Origin: Alloascoidea hylecoeti
Lineage: Eukaryota
Length of the DNA stretch: 20,000 nt
NCBI GenBank assembly: GCA_001600815.1
Contig: BCKZ01000011.1
Span: 751,231-771,230, forward strand
Direction: 5' to 3'
Position numbers and translations under genes: made by a program
Notes under the pieces: model-generated
Told to the model about the DNA's origin: nothing
The model's database searches: none
Seen by the model: the letters and a program-made list of their open reading frames with translations, nothing else
In this document: positions 2,711 to 20,000 of the stretch, piece by piece
Numbering within the stretch: the first letter of the stretch is position 1
Layout: each line of letters starts with the position of its first letter

Positions 2711-5700
2711 CTATTCAAACTTTGTATAATGACGCCGTCTTTTTTCTGGCCCTGAAGTATCAACAATATTATCAGTACGCTGGTGCTTTCTTTGATTATC
2801 ATTCCGATTATCATTTCTATTCACTCGGGAACGGATACCAAATCTGTCTCTATCCTTAGTATCGCGCATCCTGTTGTCTCTATCTCGGTCGCGGTTTCTG
2901 TCACGGTCTCTATCTCGTTCTCGGATATCTCGCTCTCTTCTTTCATTAGTGCGTTCGCGGTTTCGTTCATTTCTTTCTCTTTCACGTTCCCTATCCCCTC
3001 GTCTATCAACACGATCTCTCCTATCTCTTAACTGGTTGTCACGCGCATTTCTCACAGAATCGGGTGTATTTCGTTTCGGTGGTTGTGAATCTCGTCTTCC
3101 AGGGTTCCTGGGATTTTGGTCTACTTTTCCGTCCTTTGGATCTTCTTCATTTGCCCTTTCACTCGCTGTTGGCGACGATTTGCTTATTTTACTGTCAATA
3201 CTAGCACTTCTAGAAATGGGCACAACATTTCGTGCTCCTATACGATCCGTAAAATTATCGTTAATGCGTTTTGTATTATTGGGTCTGATATCTGCAGACT
3301 TATCTTTGGATGCTCTATCTATTCCCCCTCTTACTGATGATGATGATCTAGACTGATTGATTGAAGAACGGTTATCTAAGTTTGATTTAGAAACATCTCT
3401 TGGTTTAGAATCCCTTTCGTAGTTATTTATCTTAACATTGCGTAGTCTAGCATCGAGACCTTTAACTTCAATTAAATTAGCCGATGTTGCAGAAGCCGTG
3501 TTACGTTTATCCATTTCTCTAACTCGATTATCATCCCGTCTTCCATTTCTTCGATCATCATTATCATTTCTAATTCTTGGACCAGATGGCGGAGGAAGTC
3601 CATTGCTGTTAAGCTTATTAGAACCACGATTGTATCCATCACGATGATTATCTCTATCAACATCCCTAGAATTGAATCGATCCAATTCTTTGTTGAATGT
3701 GCTATCACCAAAGCCATCCCTAGTTTTAACTGATTCCCTTGTTCGTGAATTCCCTTTTACATGATCAATACCATTTTCTCTTTCATTATTTCGAACAAAA
3801 TCCCGAGGTCTGTCTTTGGATATATCTCTTGGGGAGTTCTTTGGACTATTTCTTTGGCTATTATCCTTTAATCGGTCCATCTTATTTTCCCGTGATGAAA
3901 TCGGGTCGTCCAACTCGTCCTTGACTATTCCCTGGCGTTCTGATTTATCATCACTGTCTTTACCGTTAGATGGAATTTTTGGGAGAGAAATTGGAGTCTT
4001 CCCCCCACTAAAAGATCTAGGTTGTGTTGGAACCTGAGAACTCTTGATATCACTCTTGGGTTGTGAAAGCGTAGATTTCACTTCTGAAATGTTTGTATCC
4101 TTAGACTTTTCGAGTGCAGATTTGTTCTTCTCCAGTGTTGCTAGGGAAGGTTTGAGTAGAGTAGCACTTGCTACCTTTTTTCCAGGGTTCTTCCTGGATT
4201 CACGAGCAGCCACTCTTTTCCTTTTTTCTGCTATTAGTTTTTCCTTTTGATCAGAAGTAGTGCCATAAAAGTCCCATAGGTCAATCCAGTCTTTCGAAGA
4301 GCGTTGAAGATGCCCTCTGAGCGCTGTGGCAGACAGTTTTAGATCTTCTCTTTTTTCTTTCTCTGCGATATTCTCAATTTCATCCAATATCTCATAACCA
4401 TGATACTCTGCTATAGGGAATACGGATATCATATTCTTTAAGACTGTAATAGCATTTCGTCTAGACATATAGTTATCACTTTGCAAGGAGCCTTTAATGT
4501 CAATCATTGTCTTTTTGTGCCATTTTTCAAGAACTCTTCTAAATTCTTCATATGAGGCCAAACTTTCATTTTCTGGTTTGTTATTAAACTTGATTCTCAT
4601 TCCAGGTAAAGTGGGCTTCGCACCATCCATTTTCCCTAATGCAACAAGGTTGTAAAGATTTTCATTTTTACGCCACTTATCAAACTCTGAAAAGATATCA
4701 CAAAAGAACAAACCGATATTTTCAGCTTCAAGTGTTGAACACGTTAACAAAGTACCATATAAAATATTTTTTGCAAACAGATTATCTAACAATAAAACAG
4801 TCGGAATAGTCGATCCAAGACGATGTAAAGTAAATATGAACTTGGAACAGAATATTGCATCTAAAGGGGAGTGCAAAGCACGAGGTAAAACACAAGTATT
4901 TATAAATTCAAAAACCTGATGATATCTATCGCTCATTGCTTTTTGTGGGTCATCATTTGCATTATCGGAAATATAAAAATGTTTGACTTCTACCAGTAAT
5001 CTTTTCATAATTGCCTTATGATGATTCAGATGTGCAATCTTTTCTCCTTCGAGTTGAGATGTCATTGAAGATAATTCGTCTCTTTCCGATTTAAGTTGTC
5101 GAATAGCCGAAGATCCTTCTCGTGAATTATCACCTCGAGAGATAGAGACACTAAGTGATGAAATTGTTTCTCTTAATTTCTTCTCTTCTGAAAAATATTT
5201 TTCAGAAGAAAAAAATATATCATAAAGCGAGAGCTGCCAGAAAGTAACATAAAATCCAATGTCCAGGTACTTAATTCCAGATTCCCCAAAAAAGGTTGAC
5301 AACTCCGACATAACAGGTACTAGTACAGGGTGCCATGGTGATATTTGTGCTTCTTCCTTATTACTATCTGGTTGAGACGATAAATCTATAACCACGCTGT
5401 CCTTGATTGTAGGTTGTTCTAGTGCTTTTACATCTTTAATTGGGCGATGGGTTTCGTCATATTCAATCATTTTAACTTGCATCATCTTTCTCCATAGTTC
5501 GAAGGCCCACTTAGGTTTAATGCCATATTTTGTGCAAAGTTCAGTAACAGAAATGACATGATTTTGAAAGGCTTCAGTAGGAAGAAAGTAATTTATCATG
5601 TCGATGAACTGATGAAGTACAGACGAGGCATCATCATATCGGCTTGATAAAACCTTCAAATGTGCTTCTGAGTCTGAGATTGTGAATACAATATTTTCCG

Positions 5701-8391
5701 TCAACTGAGCTAGTAGAACAAAAAGTTCGGCTAGAATGTTGTTATTAACCATCACATCCAAAAGACGTTTTGCAGATCTATTGGACATTTCTCGGTTATC
5801 TTGAATAACTTTATAGACTATTTTTTGTAATTTTGCACTACCCCCAAGGCCTTCAATTTGAGGTATGGTTAAATTAGAAATTTTCTTGATGCCAGACATT
5901 TGTTCAATGATTTCACCAAACAAAGAGGTTTCACCACTCTCTCTGTTGTGTAACTGTTTTATGATGTATAATAAAATTGGTGTGGAATCCATAACTGAAT
6001 ATCTTTGGCATAATTTTGCAGTAAATGAAGAGAGCGCTATAAATAAGATAAGATAGTTAGTTCCTAAAGCTGAAAGGGAATTGAATATTAATTTTACTTA
6101 CATTTCAACCAAATACGGTCATTCAAGCCATCTCGTTGTACAGTCCCTCTCCCAGAAGTCAGTTGCATCATAATCACAATTGGTAAAGCATCCCAACTAA
6201 GGTCTGTAAAATACCTTGCAGCATCAACAACTAAAGCACCCAAGTTATCATAACTTTCCACTTGACCAATAAAGGCTGTAAAAGTGGCTAAAGGATTTGC
6301 ATGTGAGATTTTAGCTAATCTCCTCATCATTTCTCGATCATTAGTTTTTGAGAGTCTTTTCATAACACCTTTAGTTGCCTTTTCTGATTTTAGACTAGCA
6401 ATTTTCAATTCAAGAATTGTTTTATTTATTGACAACCATTCTCCATATAAACTGTATCTCGTCTCAAATGAGAAAAGCTTGATGAGTTTAAATATCTCAT
6501 TAATTACTGATGGATTTTCTTCAATTAATGATACTGAAGGATGAATAAAATTTCTAAAATATTGGTACCAGAATTCAACCTTTTCAACGTTTTTCGTTGC
6601 TTGTAGACTATTGACACCAATTCTACAAAGTTTCACCAATAATATCAAATCTCTATATAATCTCGGGCCAGAAAATCGCAAAAACGCTGCAGATAATTCT
6701 TGTAAATCTTCTATAGTTGAGATCGGCTTTAATTCAGATGTCCAGTCATCATAAAAGAAACGATGAGTTACACCAGCTTCAGTAGGCGTTTTTAATGGTG
6801 TCAAAACTCTCCGATGACTTTTTTGTTTCGGAGGTACCAAAGTTGTGGTTTTATTAATAGATGAGGGTAAGTTGAGTGGAGTTGAAATATTTCCTTGTCT
6901 TTTAAAAGGTCTGATTTCTTCATAAAGAGGAGTGATACAATGATTGATTATTCTGTGAATCAAGTCTGCAATTTCTGGATCTGGACCAGGCAAGAATGGA
7001 AATTTTGATAAAAGAAATAAAGAGGGCCATATAGCACCAACGGCAAGTAAAGCTTTCAGTAATTGAACCTTCTGGTTCTTGGCCAATTCTTTTCCGGAAG
7101 AAAGAATAGTCGGTTCTTCCTTTTTCTGTTCGGTTTGTGTTGAAGAACGTGATTGAGAATCTTTCGACGAAGGAGCAGAATCGTCAGCCAAAGGGGCGGC
7201 CATAGCTAATGCAGAAGAACGGGCCATAAGTGCTTTATTTTCCATTTCTTCCCGCCAACTTTTGTTGATTTCATTCATTATTTCATCTGATGGTGATAAA
7301 TAATGATATATCTCACCAAAACTAATAAATTTTTCTTTTATCAGAACAGCTATCATAACCATTAAATTTTCTGGGGCAGCTTCGTTCTTGTCAGCATAAA
7401 ACTTGAGCTTGAACCCAAGCAATTTTGCAGCAGATGTGTTTCCACCAGGTTTACCAAGATCGTTAAGAGAAGTAGGTGAAGCCAGTTTCAATGGCCACCA
7501 TGGTGATTTTTTCAAGACATTTAAAAAGAATTGAGAATTTGCTACTATATTTATTGAAAAAATGTCAAGAAAAATATCTAAGGAACGAATTGGATCCAAG
7601 TCGAAAAACCCAATCAAAGAAATAATCGCCTCAGAAGTGGATGCTATTTTTGACATATTATTAGGCGAATAAGAGGCAGAATGAATTTCAACTATAAATC
7701 GGGCATAACCTTCTGATTCTTCTCTTGGTAAGTTAAATCGAATCTGAAGGTACTGTAATGTTGTATTTGTTTTAACTACTTTTTTTTCAAACAAAGCAGT
7801 CACTACATTTAGTTTTACTAGAGTTTTTGGATCAAGTTGTACTAGCATTAAGGATTTATCAAGTGGGACTTGCTTCATCAGAGAGATAAGATCGTCTGTT
7901 AAGTCAAATGTTGAGAAAATCTCTAAGAAAAGAGATAAAAGTTCATTTGTTCGTGTAGAATAAAGTTTTGCGGTATTTGTGAAAAATTGTGAGAGCAAAT
8001 CAGCGAGTATGGGTATACTTATTCGATTCAAATTGCAAGCTTGAAATATTTCGTAAAAAAAAGTAGATAGAGCAACCACATCGAACGGCTGAACCAGTTT
8101 CGTAACATCATCCAGACTGAACGCGGTGTTGATCCTGTTAAAATTTGTTCTTTCCGTTTTTCATTCATTTACTGTTGTTTCGCAGCTAACGACGCCAAAA
8201 TCCAAGAGAAATACATACATGTTGGGGTCTTGTGTTGAGCACCAGGCTTCCAGAAAGTCATCTGACAGGTAACACCATTCTGGGCCATCATCAGAAATGA
8301 GACTCAATGGTGTCACCGTGAGGTGATGGCTGGACACGGGGGCTGCGCCCATTTCTGGGCTCTGCGGGGTGTTTTCAAATACAGCAGCCAT
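2711..8391 (-). CDS. THO2: THO complex subunit 2, about 1843 aa, 3 exons: 8391-8219, 8134-6102, 6036-2711
   Basis: Intron 8218-8135 (GTATGT...TTAACAG) and intron 6101-6037 (GTAAGT...ACTAAC...ATAG) join three ORFs in frame, with junctions DPNM-INTAF and WLKS-LSSF. Tho2 motifs: FNLPREESEGYA, LIGFFDLDPIRSLD, QVESYDNL, FYVTFWQLSLYDI, YMSRRNAITVL. Confidence 0.93.
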
Positions 8392-14863: not shown

Positions 14864-15647
14864 TGAATATATATATGCTATGATTAAAGATAACCGGGAC
14901 TTTCGGTTCGAGTTCCTATCACTCTGATAATTACGGGATTTGAATTAGTTAAATTTATAGGATTTTATTCCAATAGTCGTGATGTATTAATCGTGTAAAG
15001 ATTTATAACCAAAGTAAAGGTGGGTGTAAGTTATTATTAGTATCATTATATCAAATTTATTATGCTTCCGGCTCCGGGTATTGTGAACGTGATATCTGAT
15101 AAATCCTTCTCCACTCATTTACAAACCAAAAAAATGTTATCAGCACAAACATTACAAGACTTATTTAATTAATTTAAGATTTTTAGTGAACCTATCTGCT
15201 AAATTTTGGTAAGTTGGTCCGTAAGGTTAAATTAAAAAAAAAAAATTCGTTGATTTTGGGAAAGCAGATTGGCTTACATGATGATAATAGTTAATTAGTG
15301 ATAACAATTTGCTCATATATAAAACTTTACATGTAACTTATAGTATTATCTACCAATTGCAATTAACTCATTTTATTTCACCAATTCTATTGTTTTGGGT
15401 GTTTTTGATGATCAAATTTGCGATATAAATATATGGTAGTAGATAAATTTAACTATTACCAGTAGGAATGAAAGAATAAGATTCAGGTGTTTCGGTGTAC
15501 TTATTTATATTTAATCTATTTATTGAGTCTAGGGCAGTCTAGACTTTGAATGAGTATAAGTAAATGAGATGATGAAGCATGAATGAGATGAAAGATCATC
15601 TTACAGTGTTTTGCGTTAATATCGACCATATGATCACTAAGTAATCG

Positions 15648-15780
15648 GACACTTGGAGGACTAATTATTTGAAAACGCGTACGAAAAAGGGCACTAACTT
15701 ATACATAGCTTAAAATTAAAGAAGTGAAAGATAATCAGATTATTCGCACACGTTTTCGAATAATTAGTCCTCCAAGTGTC
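15648..15780. repeat. Inverted repeat with 40-bp arms (MITE-like hairpin)
   Basis: 15648-15687 (GACACTTGGAGGACTAATTATTTGAAAACGCGTACGAAAA) matches the reverse complement of 15741-15780 at 36/40 positions, with a 53-bp spacer. Confidence 0.85.
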
Positions 15781-15811
15781 TGATATTAATTGAAAATACT
15801 ATATCATCTCA

Positions 15812-16759
15812 ATCACTCTTTATCTTAAATATTCGCCCACCTTTGCGTAAATATCCGATTACGTGATGTAATAATATTCAACCATATTTTAAACTAAATA
15901 TCAGGCCATTTCATGCAAAAGGTTCGATGATCTATTAGTTAATGTATTCGCCCACTTATTAAGTTAAATATTGGACTACTTCACGCATAATGATTCGCTT
16001 AATTTATACTTAATATATGACCAGCTCCTAAGTTAAATATTCGGCAACATGGATGACTTTCCTTAAGTATTTGACCACTTCTTGAATTAAATATTCGGCC
16101 ATACCTTCAATTATTATTCCACCATCCTACACTACTTTTCGGCCACCTATACTTTCAAAATTTTAACACGCTTTGTACTTGTTTGACTACATTCTCTTCA
16201 CTAACTATTCTTTTACAACAAGCTTCTCTTTAAAGAAAAATTGAGTCCCTCGAAAAAGAATCATGGAAGCAGTATTGAAAACCCCAGTAGAACGGCGTAT
16301 CAAAACATGCTGCCATATTACGTATTTTGGATTTATTTCAAAAAGTATATTTTTATTGTCAATAAGTAGATTATATAGAAATAAATATAATTTATACTGA
16401 CTATTATGATCAAAAATTGTGGACTAGCTTCGAATAAAATGTGTACTGTATGTGAATGAAAATATCAATGGGTAAATATATATTATTGATGTGTTAAAGA
16501 TGATCAACATGTACAAGTATGAAAGTATGGTTGAAAGTTAGTGGTCGAATATAAATTTAAGGTGTGACCGAATGTTTAATTTAAGAAGTGGTCGAATATT
16601 TAAGTAAAAAGGTGGATGAATACTGATTCAAGAAAATGGTAGAACCATTATGCGTGACATGCTGAGTAAATATGTTGTACCCAAGGGTGAATAGAAACGA
16701 GAAGATTAATATAAATGAAGTAATGACTAAGAGTACTCCAAATAAGATAATAGAGTGAT
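15812..16759. repeat. Foldback-like structure whose arms consist of a degenerate ~23-bp repeat (core AAATATTCGRCCAC)
   Basis: About 14 direct units at 15827-16146 and about 5 inverted units at 16525-16650. Three nested inverted matches: 16062-16110/16556-16604 (42/49), 15981-15992/16646-16657 (12/12), and 15812-15827/16743-16759 (1 indel). Confidence 0.75.
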
Positions 16760-16784: not shown

Positions 16785-17205
16785 TCCACCTATTAGCGCT
16801 CTCTTCGAAAATGATTAGCGTCGCATTTGGTAATTAATTAGTGCTATTTTCGTAAATTAATTACCTTCTCTTTGGTGAATAATTGAAATTATTTTCCATA
16901 ATTAATTAATGGTATTTCAGGTAATTATTTGATGCTTCCCGGGAGAATTTGGAAGCACTATGTGTGACAATTAATTGGTCACAAGTTGGCGTTAAATTTG
17001 AAAATTATTTATCTATTATGTTGAAAATTAACTGGCGCCATTTTTTGAAATTACTTAGCGATCGGGTGTGAATCAATAATTAGTCACCTCTCCAGATATT
17101 AACTGGTGCTGTGTGTGAATAATAACTAGCTATTTTGCTGAAATGTATTTAACGTTATGTATGGCAAGTAGTTAGCGTCTAGTGAGGGAGCTAATTAGCC
17201 AACCC
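16785..17205 (+). repeat. Second degenerate tandem array with ~23-bp period (core AATTAAYTRGYG)
   Basis: The YTRG-type core recurs at 16793, 16815, 16838, 16861, then 17032, 17055, 17080, 17103, 17126, 17149, 17172 and 17195, mostly 22-23 bp apart. Confidence 0.7.
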
Positions 17206-18061
17206 CCAGGTAAATAGGTATAGGAGACTGACAATAATAATCGGTAAACCTAATAGAATAAAATGATGAAATTATTATATAGATATTATAAATTATATTA
17301 TAAGATTATAGTTGTATATACTTAAAATTAATATAAATAGAGACTAAATCCACCATTGGATTTAGTTCTCTACCCTTTTTATCTTACACTCATCTTACAA
17401 TTATATTTACTAATAAGCGTAAAAGTTTAATAGATTTCCAATCTTTTTAGCCTTAAAACAAATATTAGCTAAATACCAACATCTTTTTACACTTATTAAA
17501 ACTTACCAACTTTCACTACAAAAACTTACCGATCTTTACTACTAAAATTGGCCGAATAAACTTCAGGTTTTAAGGATGAATATAATAAAGATGACCCCGT
17601 TGTGTCTTTGAATCAATTGAAAGACTTTGACATCCCTTACGATGCCTTGAAATCATTCAAAGACACGATGGTCAAAACTGCTTCTAAATAAAAACATGGT
17701 TACTTCTTCCCGGCATTCAAGGCTTATCTCATTGGTAAACTAAAATCACAGTTTAATCTAGACCCATCCGATATCAATAAATTGGATGAGCATATATGTA
17801 CAAACTCAATGATCAATCTCATGTACCTAATTATTTCTGCACTTTTATTGAAATTATTATTAATGACAAATTTGATCAAAGCGTTTGTGAAGACTTCGAC
17901 CCGGATTTTAATGGAATCAATATGTGTCATTACCTTGTTGAAAATTATGGAGAAGATAAATTGCCTGTTTTAGAAAGACAATCAATCTTGAAACAACTCT
18001 TAAACAACGTATTATAGAAAGGCTATAATTTTACTGAATTTGAAGAATATACAATGATTCT

Positions 18062-18453
18062 TGTTAAAGTTCAAAGTGCCTGTTCTCCTAGTTGCGCCAA
18101 AAAGCCAATCGACTTTTTAGTGAACTGTTCCAAGAGTGTAATATATCCAACACACCCCCCAACCTTAGGCAGGTCACTTTACTAATCGCCATATCTGCTC
18201 ACCCCCGTGATTTTTCGGGTTTCGGACTTCTTGCAGACTGACTCGGACATTTTACTTTCGGGCCATTTACGCGTTACCCTAGTAAGCCTCAACTAGACTG
18301 ATGTAAACTACTGTCCTACGGCGGACTCGAACCTGATGCCTCTCGTGGCGGCGCCGCTACCATGTTAAATTTCAAAGTGCCTGTTCTCCCAGTTGCGCCA
18401 AAAAGCCAATCGACTCTTTAGTGAACTGTTCCAAGAGTGTAATATATCCAACA
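18062..18453 (-). mobile_element. Terminal-repeat retrotransposon in miniature (TRIM), 392 bp, non-coding
   Basis: Two 91-bp direct repeats (18062-18152 and 18363-18453, 3 mismatches) with TGTT...AACA ends. Target-site duplication ATTCT at 18057-18061 and 18454-18458. On the minus strand, the PBS TGGTAGCG (18362-18355) abuts the 5' LTR and the PPT GGGGGGTG (18160-18153) abuts the 3' LTR. Confidence 0.95.
18323..18400 (-). promoter_or_regulatory. Putative type-2 RNA polymerase III promoter within the TRIM
   Basis: A-box match TGGCGCAACTGG (18400-18389) and B-box match GGTTCGAGTCC (18333-18323), on the same strand and 55 nt apart. Confidence 0.6.
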
Positions 18454-19312
18454 ATTCTTAAAACGTACATCGCAGGCTTTAAACAAATGTTACCATATCT
18501 AATTACCATGAAAATCAATGATCAACAACTGTATCAAACATTAGAAGAATTGGAAGGCGGTAATGATAACAAAACATTTATTGAACTTGAACATAAGAAA
18601 ATCATCAAGCAACATAAATTCTTTGACAAATTACACGAATCTGAACACGTCAACTATATCAAAAATAATCAGGCTAACAATAATAATTCTTATAATCATT
18701 CTTCTTATCACAATGACAGCAATAACTTTGACAAAAAGGTCAAATGTTACATCTGCAGACGATTTGGTCATCTAGGCCCAGACTGTCCAAAGTACGACCC
18801 TGCCAAGGATTAGAAGAACTACGATAAGGTACAATATATAGAACTTCCTCTCAACACAACTGTTTACACCGAGACCATTCAAGATACTTCAGCACCTTCA
18901 GAAGAAATTTTCTACACCTCTGAAACAGCCTTTATTCATGACTTAGGAAATTTTTGTCACTTAGTCAAAGATTCATCATTATTAACTAATTTACAACAAT
19001 CTTCTACAACTGTCAAAGGAATTGATAATACTCCCACTAAGGTAATGGAAGGTGATTTGAAGATCGACAACTTAGTATTTCATAATGTTAAAGTATTTCC
19101 TAAAGCCGATCGTGATATTAATTTAGGCCATCTATTAGCCAAACAAGGATATCATATCAATTTAACAAATGACAACGCTACAATTATTAAAGATAATGAC
19201 ATTATTTTGCACGCTGAGAAAAACGAGCGTTTTTGGAAACTCACCCCTAAGGACTTTCGCCAGGAGACGGTTTTACAAATTGACAAATTAGATGACACTG
19301 ACATAATGAGGT

Positions 19313-19728
19313 TACACATATGCCCGTCAAGTTTGTTTGATTCAGATGGATCTAAATTGAATTGTGACTTGAGTTTGTCTTGAACGCTGGGAAGAAGTAA
19401 CCATGTGTGTATGTTTGGAAGCGGATTTGACCATCGTATATTTGAAAGATTTTAAGGCATCTTAAAGGATGTCAAAGTCTTTCAATTGGTTTAAAGACAC
19501 AAATGGGTAGTTTTTGCTATATTCATGGTTTCGAACCTGAAGTTGAATCGGCCATATTTTGTAGTGAAAGTTGGTAAGTTTTAATAAGTGTAAAAAGATG
19601 TGGGTATTTAGCTAATATTTGTTTTAAGGCTAAAAAGATTGGAAATCTATTAAACTTTTACGCTTATTAGTAAATATAATTGTAAGATGAGTGCAGGATA
19701 AAAAGGATGGAGAACTAAATCCAATGGT
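19313..19728 (-). mobile_element. Second, inverted fragment of the same copia family (leader plus start of gag)
   Basis: Its reverse complement aligns with 17352-17800. It retains ATGGCCGAT where the first copy has TTGGCCGAA. Confidence 0.9.
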
Positions 19729-19754
19729 ATTAATTTTGTAAATTTTTCACTTTT

Positions 19755-19888
19755 AGTAGTAAGAGATGATGATAAGATAAACAGGATAGAGATCTAAATC
19801 CTGAGGAGGATTTAGTCCCTTTTATATTCATTTTTCTTATATATCTATATAGTTTATTTATNTTATTGTTGAATATTATTTTTTAACA
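19755..19888 (-). mobile_element. Third, more diverged LTR-like fragment of the same family; boundaries approximate
   Basis: The minus strand reads AATATAAAAGGGACTAAATCCTCCTCAGGATTTAGATCTCTATCCTGTTTATCTTA, similar to 17330-17386 (AATATAAATAGAGACTAAATCCACCATTGGATTTAGTTCTCTACCCTTTTTATCTTA). Confidence 0.65.
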
Positions 19889-20000
19889 TTCTTTTTAATA
19901 TTCAAAAATAATTAAATAATACAAATGTAGTTAAAGAAAAATGGGCGTTAATAAGATAATGATAGAATAAGATAATTTTGAATAATAATGAAATAAAGAT

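Follow-up and report, generated by a model that had tools for sequence, protein, structure and literature searches.

What interrupts the retrotransposon gag frame near the end of a 20,000-nt stretch of Alloascoidea hylecoeti DNA (contig BCKZ01000011.1, positions 751,231 to 771,230; hereafter, at its full length, the window), and is it a mobile element in its own right? A preliminary description, made from the sequence alone, had proposed an intact 392-bp miniature long terminal repeat (LTR) retrotransposon (TRIM), devoid of coding capacity and possibly new to the budding yeasts (Saccharomycotina). We conclude, with a probability of about 0.88, that one copy of a TRIM/SMART-type miniature LTR retrotransposon, non-autonomous and 392 bp in length, occupies this locus in a budding yeast. 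The structure of the element, its exact boundaries, the absence of coding capacity, and its membership in a many-copy family are observed directly; the way in which it would be transcribed and mobilised is deduced from its anatomy.

Anatomy and boundaries of the element

The element is made of two direct repeats of 91 nt, 97% identical (3 mismatches) and each running from TGTT to AACA, and of a 210-bp non-coding interior between them (Table 1). A perfect ATTCT duplication stands on either side. Two sub-patterns of the LTR matched at only these two places in the window, while none were expected from 200 shuffles, and no further copy turned up when the window was searched with the element by blastn at word size 7. 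The repeats with their ends, the interior, and the duplication had been described before. The orientation, however, needs correction: the element is carried by the minus strand, antisense to the host gag, and on that strand the order is 5' LTR, primer binding site (PBS), interior, polypurine tract (PPT), and 3' LTR.

As the preliminary description had stated, the PBS and a G-rich PPT lie directly against the LTRs. The first 8 nt of the PBS, TGGTAGCG (18355 to 18362, minus strand), come straight after the 5' LTR and correspond to the canonical 3'-end motif of the initiator methionine tRNA (tRNA-iMet). This 8-mer is found once in the window, and at least once in 32 of 200 shuffles. Within the PBS is also a perfect 10-nt palindrome, GCGGCGCCGC, which might, speculatively, have a role in RNA dimerisation. 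The 5' LTR contains TATATT at LTR positions 8 to 13 and a single T5 run at positions 50 to 54.

The GC content of the interior is 53%, compared to 35.5% for the window. The longest ATG-initiated open reading frame (ORF) touching the element encodes 45 amino acids, and the element is therefore non-autonomous, in agreement with the earlier claims of a non-coding interior and of dependence on another element. It had also been noted that the ORF track hides the element, and indeed ORF 18421-18813 begins within an LTR. No Rfam match was obtained on 17000-20000 (E up to 1) or on the element itself (E up to 10), and no excess of RNA structure was detected in the interior (z = +1.95, with 197 of 200 shuffles folding at least as well).

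Table 1. Features of the element and of the interrupted gag (window positions; strand given where it applies)
Feature	Position	Strand	Evidence
Host gag, upstream part, decayed, Ty1/copia-type; carries a frameshift and TAG 18015-18017	17692..18061	+	aligns with P0122 residues 92-182
Target-site duplication ATTCT, left copy	18057..18061		identical to 18454-18458
3' LTR (element orientation), 91 bp, TGTT..AACA	18062..18152	-	repeat comparison, pattern matches
Polypurine-like tract GGTTGGGGGGTG, adjoins 3' LTR	18153..18164	-	sequence read directly
Non-coding interior, 210 bp	18153..18362	-	ORF, GC, folding, Rfam, depth
B-box-like motif GGTTCGAGTCC (RNA polymerase III [Pol III] type, by sequence)	18323..18333	-	pattern match
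PBS TGGTAGCGGCGCCGCC, adjoins 5' LTR; first 8 nt, tRNA-iMet 3'-end motif	18347..18362	-	sequence
5' LTR (element orientation), 91 bp	18363..18453	-	repeat comparison
Target-site duplication ATTCT, right copy	18454..18458		identical to left copy
Host gag, downstream part (CCHC knuckle), TAG 18811-18813, then open frame	18459..19380	+	Pfam, homologues, alignment

The interrupted gene is a decayed retrotransposon gag. A HMMER search with its downstream part, in which one TAG was entered as X, against 1.84 billion representative sequences found 28 homologues. Pfam scans of four homologues detected RVT_2 together with Pol_BBD in three and, in one of the three, Retrotran_gag_2 as well, while the host pieces themselves gave a CCHC knuckle (zf-CCHC) alone. 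Judged by this homology, the relatives of the host gag are Ty1/copia polyproteins, and the open frame that follows TAG 18811-18813 is homologous to the post-gag region of copia polyproteins. The best homologue, P0122, is a protein of 936 amino acids with 43% identity and without a Pfam domain.

P0122 also provided an independent check of the boundaries, since it is uninterrupted at the insertion point, where it reads SYTMILKEYLPGF. In the window, the upstream gag piece ends with EYTMI and the downstream piece starts with KTYIAGF, the insertion having split a Leu codon. Removal of 18062-18458 (397 nt, a frameshift) brings upstream frame 0 together with downstream frame 1. After this excision, the translation aligned with P0122 residues 92 to 306 as one block, gap-free at the junction, with a score of 426, whereas the two halves, read without excision, scored 185 and 254. 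The uninterrupted P0122 has no counterpart of the 91-bp sequence and is colinear with the window on either side of the insertion point, and that sequence is therefore no part of gag; its presence in uninterrupted copies of the host gag, which would have indicated a local duplication, had been named beforehand as a possible objection.

The claim that excision repairs the gag frame thus stands at the junction. It does not extend to the rest of the gene, in which the in-frame codons TAG 18015-18017 and TAG 18811-18813 and an upstream frameshift persist. The first TAG is aligned with an ordinary P0122 residue, and so, by eye, is the second, just beyond the end of the alignment. Since both fall at ordinary residues, the host is a mutated relic. 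Gag and pol were probably encoded in one frame in the host family, and the TAGs probably reflect decay and not a readthrough signal.

The relic is bounded by inverted copies of its own putative LTR, leader, and gag start (17336-17721 and 19379-19823). These arms are 80 to 95% alike and form a head-to-head pair of two partial elements, and the same inverted joint was found in contigs of three sequencing runs.

A many-copy repeat family

Words of the element occur in six public sequencing runs from three studies, two of them on one organism and the third on wood-decay metagenomes. The run richest in such words may be the window's own sample. Contigs of four runs, representing all three studies, were placed on positions 17600-19000 (Table 2).

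Table 2. Contigs of four public runs placed on 17600-19000 (depths are summed contig depths)
Run	Contigs placed	Fitting both LTRs	Flank depth	Depth of interior 18258-18304	Depth of top LTR bin
X1	210	101	~55	1539	73,800
X4	199	95	3-9	170	10,300
X3	162	80	5-8	195	10,700
X5	3	0	no cover	9	9

In X1, X4, and X3, the depth of the central interior was about 20 to 50 times that of the flanks and the depth of the LTRs was much higher, although depths summed over contigs do not equal copy numbers and these figures give orders of magnitude only. Within the interior, depth rose in the 50 nt nearest the PPT. In orders of magnitude, then, there are tens of interiors and considerably more LTRs, which is the usual excess of solo LTRs. 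In X5, a single 333-nt contig covers one LTR and the interior and runs on into the second LTR (18062-18391).

The preliminary description had suggested looking for further copies, and many were found, with flanks that differ right from the LTR ends outward. In X1, X4, and X3, loose contig ends begin precisely at 18362/18363 and at 18453, that is, at the edges of an LTR, and continue into mutually different AT-rich sequence (agreement of 0.56 to 0.62, with three or four contigs per row, among the rows listed). The element thus belongs to a many-copy repeat family. The following features of TRIM and SMART elements were found: direct repeats with TG..CA ends, PBS and PPT in their proper position, a non-coding length below about 1 kb, a target-site duplication, and dispersed copies with different flanks, the last of these judged from the flanks of more than 80 LTR-bearing contigs per run in three runs.

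Comparison with the majority sequence of the family revealed differences in this copy at positions 18115, 18131, 18212, 18215, 18270, 18282, 18312, and 18370. Relative to that majority, the 3' LTR has a private T at 18115 and the 5' LTR a private T at 18370, where 25, 23, and 23 contigs of the three runs have a G. This copy is therefore a somewhat diverged family member (about 3%) in which each LTR has gained a private change. Both of its junctions with the host gag are bridged in all three runs that cover the locus.

Two other forms were observed among the contigs. An interior deletion variant of the family, with 36 nt absent at 18177-18214, is represented by one contig at single-copy depth in each of three runs. 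In addition, an LTR that is 88% alike lies in the middle of contigs of 444 nt (X1), 485 nt (X4), and 229 nt (X3), at about 25 times the flank depth and with non-matching high-depth sequence on both sides. These contigs could represent a related family, a longer LTR that includes this module, or a tandem form. Outside the runs, neither a pattern of the LTR core nor one of the PBS region had a match in a metagenome contig collection, and the LTR pattern gave none in viral contig and genome contig collections.

Proposed cycle and competing explanations

Because the element has all the parts of an LTR retrotransposon except the genes, we propose that the canonical retrotransposition cycle would apply. 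The RNA would begin in the 5' LTR and end in the 3' LTR, and it would be packaged in the Gag particles of an autonomous element of the same yeast. Minus-strand reverse transcription would be primed by the 3' end of the initiator tRNA-Met at TGGTAGCG, and plus-strand synthesis would begin at the G-rich tract GGTTGGGGGGTG. The integrase of the partner would then insert the complementary DNA (cDNA) through a 5-bp staggered cut, giving rise to the ATTCT duplication and splitting an unrelated Ty1/copia gag relic. From the same anatomy we infer mobilisation in trans, tRNA-iMet as the primer, and transcription by RNA polymerase II from the TATA-like TATATT in the LTR.

For the mobilising partner, a Ty1/copia-type element seems the better guess. 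The LTR of Ty1 starts with TGTTGG, as does the LTR of the element, and a 5-bp duplication and a tRNA-iMet-type PBS abutting the LTR, both among the features expected of a Ty1/copia-dependent element, are present. It is because of these features, together with the link of fungal TRIMs and of SMARTs to Copia elements, that we prefer a copia-type partner. A Ty3/gypsy-type partner is unlikely. Ty3 does use the 8-nt TGGTAGCG as its PBS for tRNA-iMet and does generate 5-bp duplications, and a PBS of that length would suit the present one, in which just 8 contiguous nt match the canonical motif. However, the PBS of the element touches the LTR, while a gap of 2 to 10 bp is common in gypsy-class elements according to the relevant passage of PMC4139406, and the TGTTGG start is that of Ty1. 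Furthermore, Copia elements are the partners to which section 3.6 of PMC10886601 links the fungal TRIMs having 5-bp duplications, and SMART, the nearest in size, is given a copia partner in PMC3281118.

The host relic was considered as the mobilising partner and rejected, its putative LTR end and its leader being unlike those of the miniature element; the sequence that follows its putative LTR end is TGGCCGA. Self-priming of the Tf1 type was rejected as well: no stretch of 6 nt or more in the first 40 nt beyond the LTR is complementary to the LTR itself, the sole match being the PBS palindrome. The element is not a retrozyme either, as no hammerhead ribozyme was detected in its LTRs (Rfam, no match over the element with E up to 10).

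A second alternative concerns transcription. The same element might be transcribed by Pol III, like the TRIMp3 class (Helenus, Cassandra, and Ajax), from a promoter split between an A-box-like TGGCGCAACTGG in the LTR and the B box GGTTCGAGTCC in the leader. The latter matches the B-box consensus GGTTCGANNCC exactly, where 0.03 matches are expected per window, and the A-box-like motif lies 67 nt upstream of it, within the 5' LTR. The interior is GC-rich and its sense strand has no run of four or more Ts, and passages of PMC10886601 report fungal TRIMs that carry Pol III promoters. We nevertheless regard this explanation as very unlikely. The A-box-like pattern is at chance level (2 found, 2.23 expected) and is mutated in the other LTR. 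The T5 run is located directly upstream of it, so that the usual Pol III start would meet a terminator or leave no R region. Neither ARAGORN (0 genes) nor Rfam (0 matches at E up to 10) detected a tRNA-like or 5S-like sequence, and the passages on Helenus place both of its boxes inside the LTR (PMC10886601). Membership in Helenus/TRIMp3 was rejected on related grounds, namely, an LTR without tRNA- or 5S-derived sequence, a B box in the interior, and an A-box-like motif at chance.

The B-box consensus GGTTCGANNCC has two matches in the window. One starts 30 nt into the interior of the miniature element (18323-18333, minus strand). The second belongs to the inverted copy of the host relic, in whose leader it shortly precedes the gag ATG (19527-19537, minus strand). 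Both sites share the 10-mer TCAGGTTCGA, and the motif is mutated in the left arm of the host. In the leaders of these two unrelated LTR elements, the TCAGGTTCGA.. sequence matching GGTTCGANNCC, which resembles a tRNA T-arm or B box, occurs some 15 to 30 nt past a TGG-initiated primer site. It is quite unlikely, in our view, that this represents a shared cis signal, either a split TFIIIC/Pol III promoter or a tRNA mimic for packaging or priming. Were it one, the cis sequences needed at a minimum for Ty1-like retrotransposition in a budding yeast would be defined by this 392-bp element, whose functional LTR measures only 91 bp.

The remaining alternative, namely a full-length element that lost its inside in a single event, or a pair of solo LTRs that landed next to each other, without any propagating family, would fit the single copy within the window but is extremely unlikely, because it is contradicted by the contig-depth evidence for a family (a central interior at about 20 to 50 times flank depth in three runs, and a separate contig of a fourth run that covers LTR, interior, and LTR), besides which the PBS and the PPT lie exactly at the inner LTR edges and a single 5-bp duplication encloses the whole element.

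Several observations weigh against our interpretation of the locus as a mobile TRIM/SMART-type element. No autonomous partner was found within the 20-kb window by blastn with the element. The match to tRNA-iMet is limited to the canonical 8-nt motif, and ARAGORN found no tRNA gene in the window. U3, R, U5, and a 3'-end signal would have to share very little space in an LTR of 91 bp, and the depths behind the family figures are, as said, not copy numbers. Finally, this copy is not young: 3 of 91 positions separate its two LTRs, and 5 of the 210 interior positions depart from the majority of the family, so that the earlier word "intact" is right for its structure and not for its age. No contig joint skipping 18062-18458, as expected from an empty allele, was found in the three runs with cover. 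As the insertion is present in all three, recent mobility of this copy is unsupported.

Genomic setting, significance, and known systems

The genes of the window are ordinary nuclear ones, encoding homologues of Tho2, a Rab-type GTPase, HEM13, a syntaxin, and a long-chain base (LCB) kinase. Among the 120 matches listed for the LCB kinase, those with a name are all from Saccharomycotina, at up to 49% identity. HEM13 has one relative at 81%, its named matches reaching up to 71% and spreading across yeasts and Pezizomycotina. As far as protein matches can tell, the host is a budding yeast of an under-sampled lineage. The Tho2 homologue (2711-8079, minus strand) is split into two ORFs, 6094-8079 and 2711-5992, separated by about 100 nt, which could be due to a short intron or a frameshift. 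A gene-less AT-rich region at 15640-16625 contains a 45-nt inverted repeat (15644-15688 and 15740-15784, 89%) and four spaced copies of a unit of about 32 nt ending with ..TTAAATATTCGGC (15875-16099); further copies of the unit, inverted, lie at 16542-16624. This region may consist of subterminal repeats of another mobile element, or it may be centromere-like or a graveyard of transposable elements.

For LTR retrotransposition, it is the budding yeasts, with Ty1 to Ty5, that serve as the reference. With dozens of full copies and many more LTRs, the present family indicates that elements parasitic on retrotransposons do well in compact yeast genomes, too. The family further offers a natural minimal substrate for finding out which cis sequences a Ty1-like machinery needs, among them the promoter, R, a packaging or dimerisation signal, the PBS, and the PPT. 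There is a practical consequence as well, since LTR finders tuned to LTRs of at least 100 to 260 bp overlook part of the repeat content of yeasts; in the relevant passage of a survey of Scheffersomyces stipitis, for example, the LTR setting was 260 to 430 nt (PMC8546629).

The element type itself, the TRIM, is already known, and its occurrence in a budding yeast is apparently unreported as far as literature searches reach. Full-text searches of the literature gave no report of a miniature, TRIM-sized element in Saccharomycotina, Repbase and Dfam lying outside their scope. The earlier suggestion of novelty has to be qualified in two respects, as TRIMs are known from other fungi and larger non-coding LTR elements from Candida. 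Engineered mini-Ty1 elements of Saccharomyces cerevisiae, which are artificial, have no ORF and consist of LTRs with short adjacent cis sequences, and they are mobilised in trans by a helper. Their cis requirement amounts to several hundred nucleotides per side, which is above the length of the whole element described here.

Among natural elements of Saccharomycotina, passages of PMC4139406 describe Tca1, Tca9, Tca10, and Tca13 of Candida albicans as non-coding LTR elements without gag or pol ORFs, of which Tca9 and Tca13 have an intact PBS and PPT and 5-bp duplications. According to the same passages, the LTRs of these four elements measure 192 to 507 bp, the shortest among the 34 C. albicans families being 127 bp; Tca1 is 5.6 kb long, and an internal region of about 2 kb is given in the passage on Tca10. 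Large retrotransposon derivatives (LARDs) are likewise reported at the centromeres of S. stipitis in the part of PMC8546629 that deals with them. Judged from these accounts, the Candida and S. stipitis elements share the host subphylum with our element but are LARD-sized and not miniature, the comparison with Tca9 and Tca13 being one of LTR length and not of internal length.

Fungal TRIMs proper are represented by Helenus (TRIMp3), for which passages of PMC10886601 describe copies in Pucciniales and Agaricomycetes, 5-bp duplications, and LTRs in excess of interiors, e.g., 529 LTRs versus 144 interiors. On the basis of those passages, our element resembles Helenus as a fungal TRIM with 5-bp duplications and with LTRs outnumbering interiors. 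It differs in that Helenus carries a tRNA-like sequence with A and B boxes in its LTR (PMC10886601), while none was detected here.

With respect to TRIMs in general, two differences stand out: the host belongs to another clade, and the LTR is slightly short. Classical TRIM LTRs, in the original plant description, are 100 to 250 bp long, and the 91 bp found here are closer to the 85 bp of SMART. It is indeed SMART (FRetro129) of the grasses that is closest in form. As the passages concerned of PMC3281118 describe it, SMART is 292 bp long, with 85-bp LTRs, a non-coding interior, and a 5-bp duplication, and it exists in tens to hundreds of copies plus solo LTRs; its putative partner, a Ty1/copia element, has very short LTRs, too. 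Set against that description, the two are close in size (292 and 392 bp), in LTR length (85 and 91 bp), in their TGT..ACA-type ends, and in the 5-bp duplication. SMART differs in having a plant host and a known candidate partner that shares its interior, and the likeness meant here is one of architecture, with no claim of a sequence relation. Existing concepts need no change, as the yeast element behaves like TRIMs and SMARTs elsewhere.

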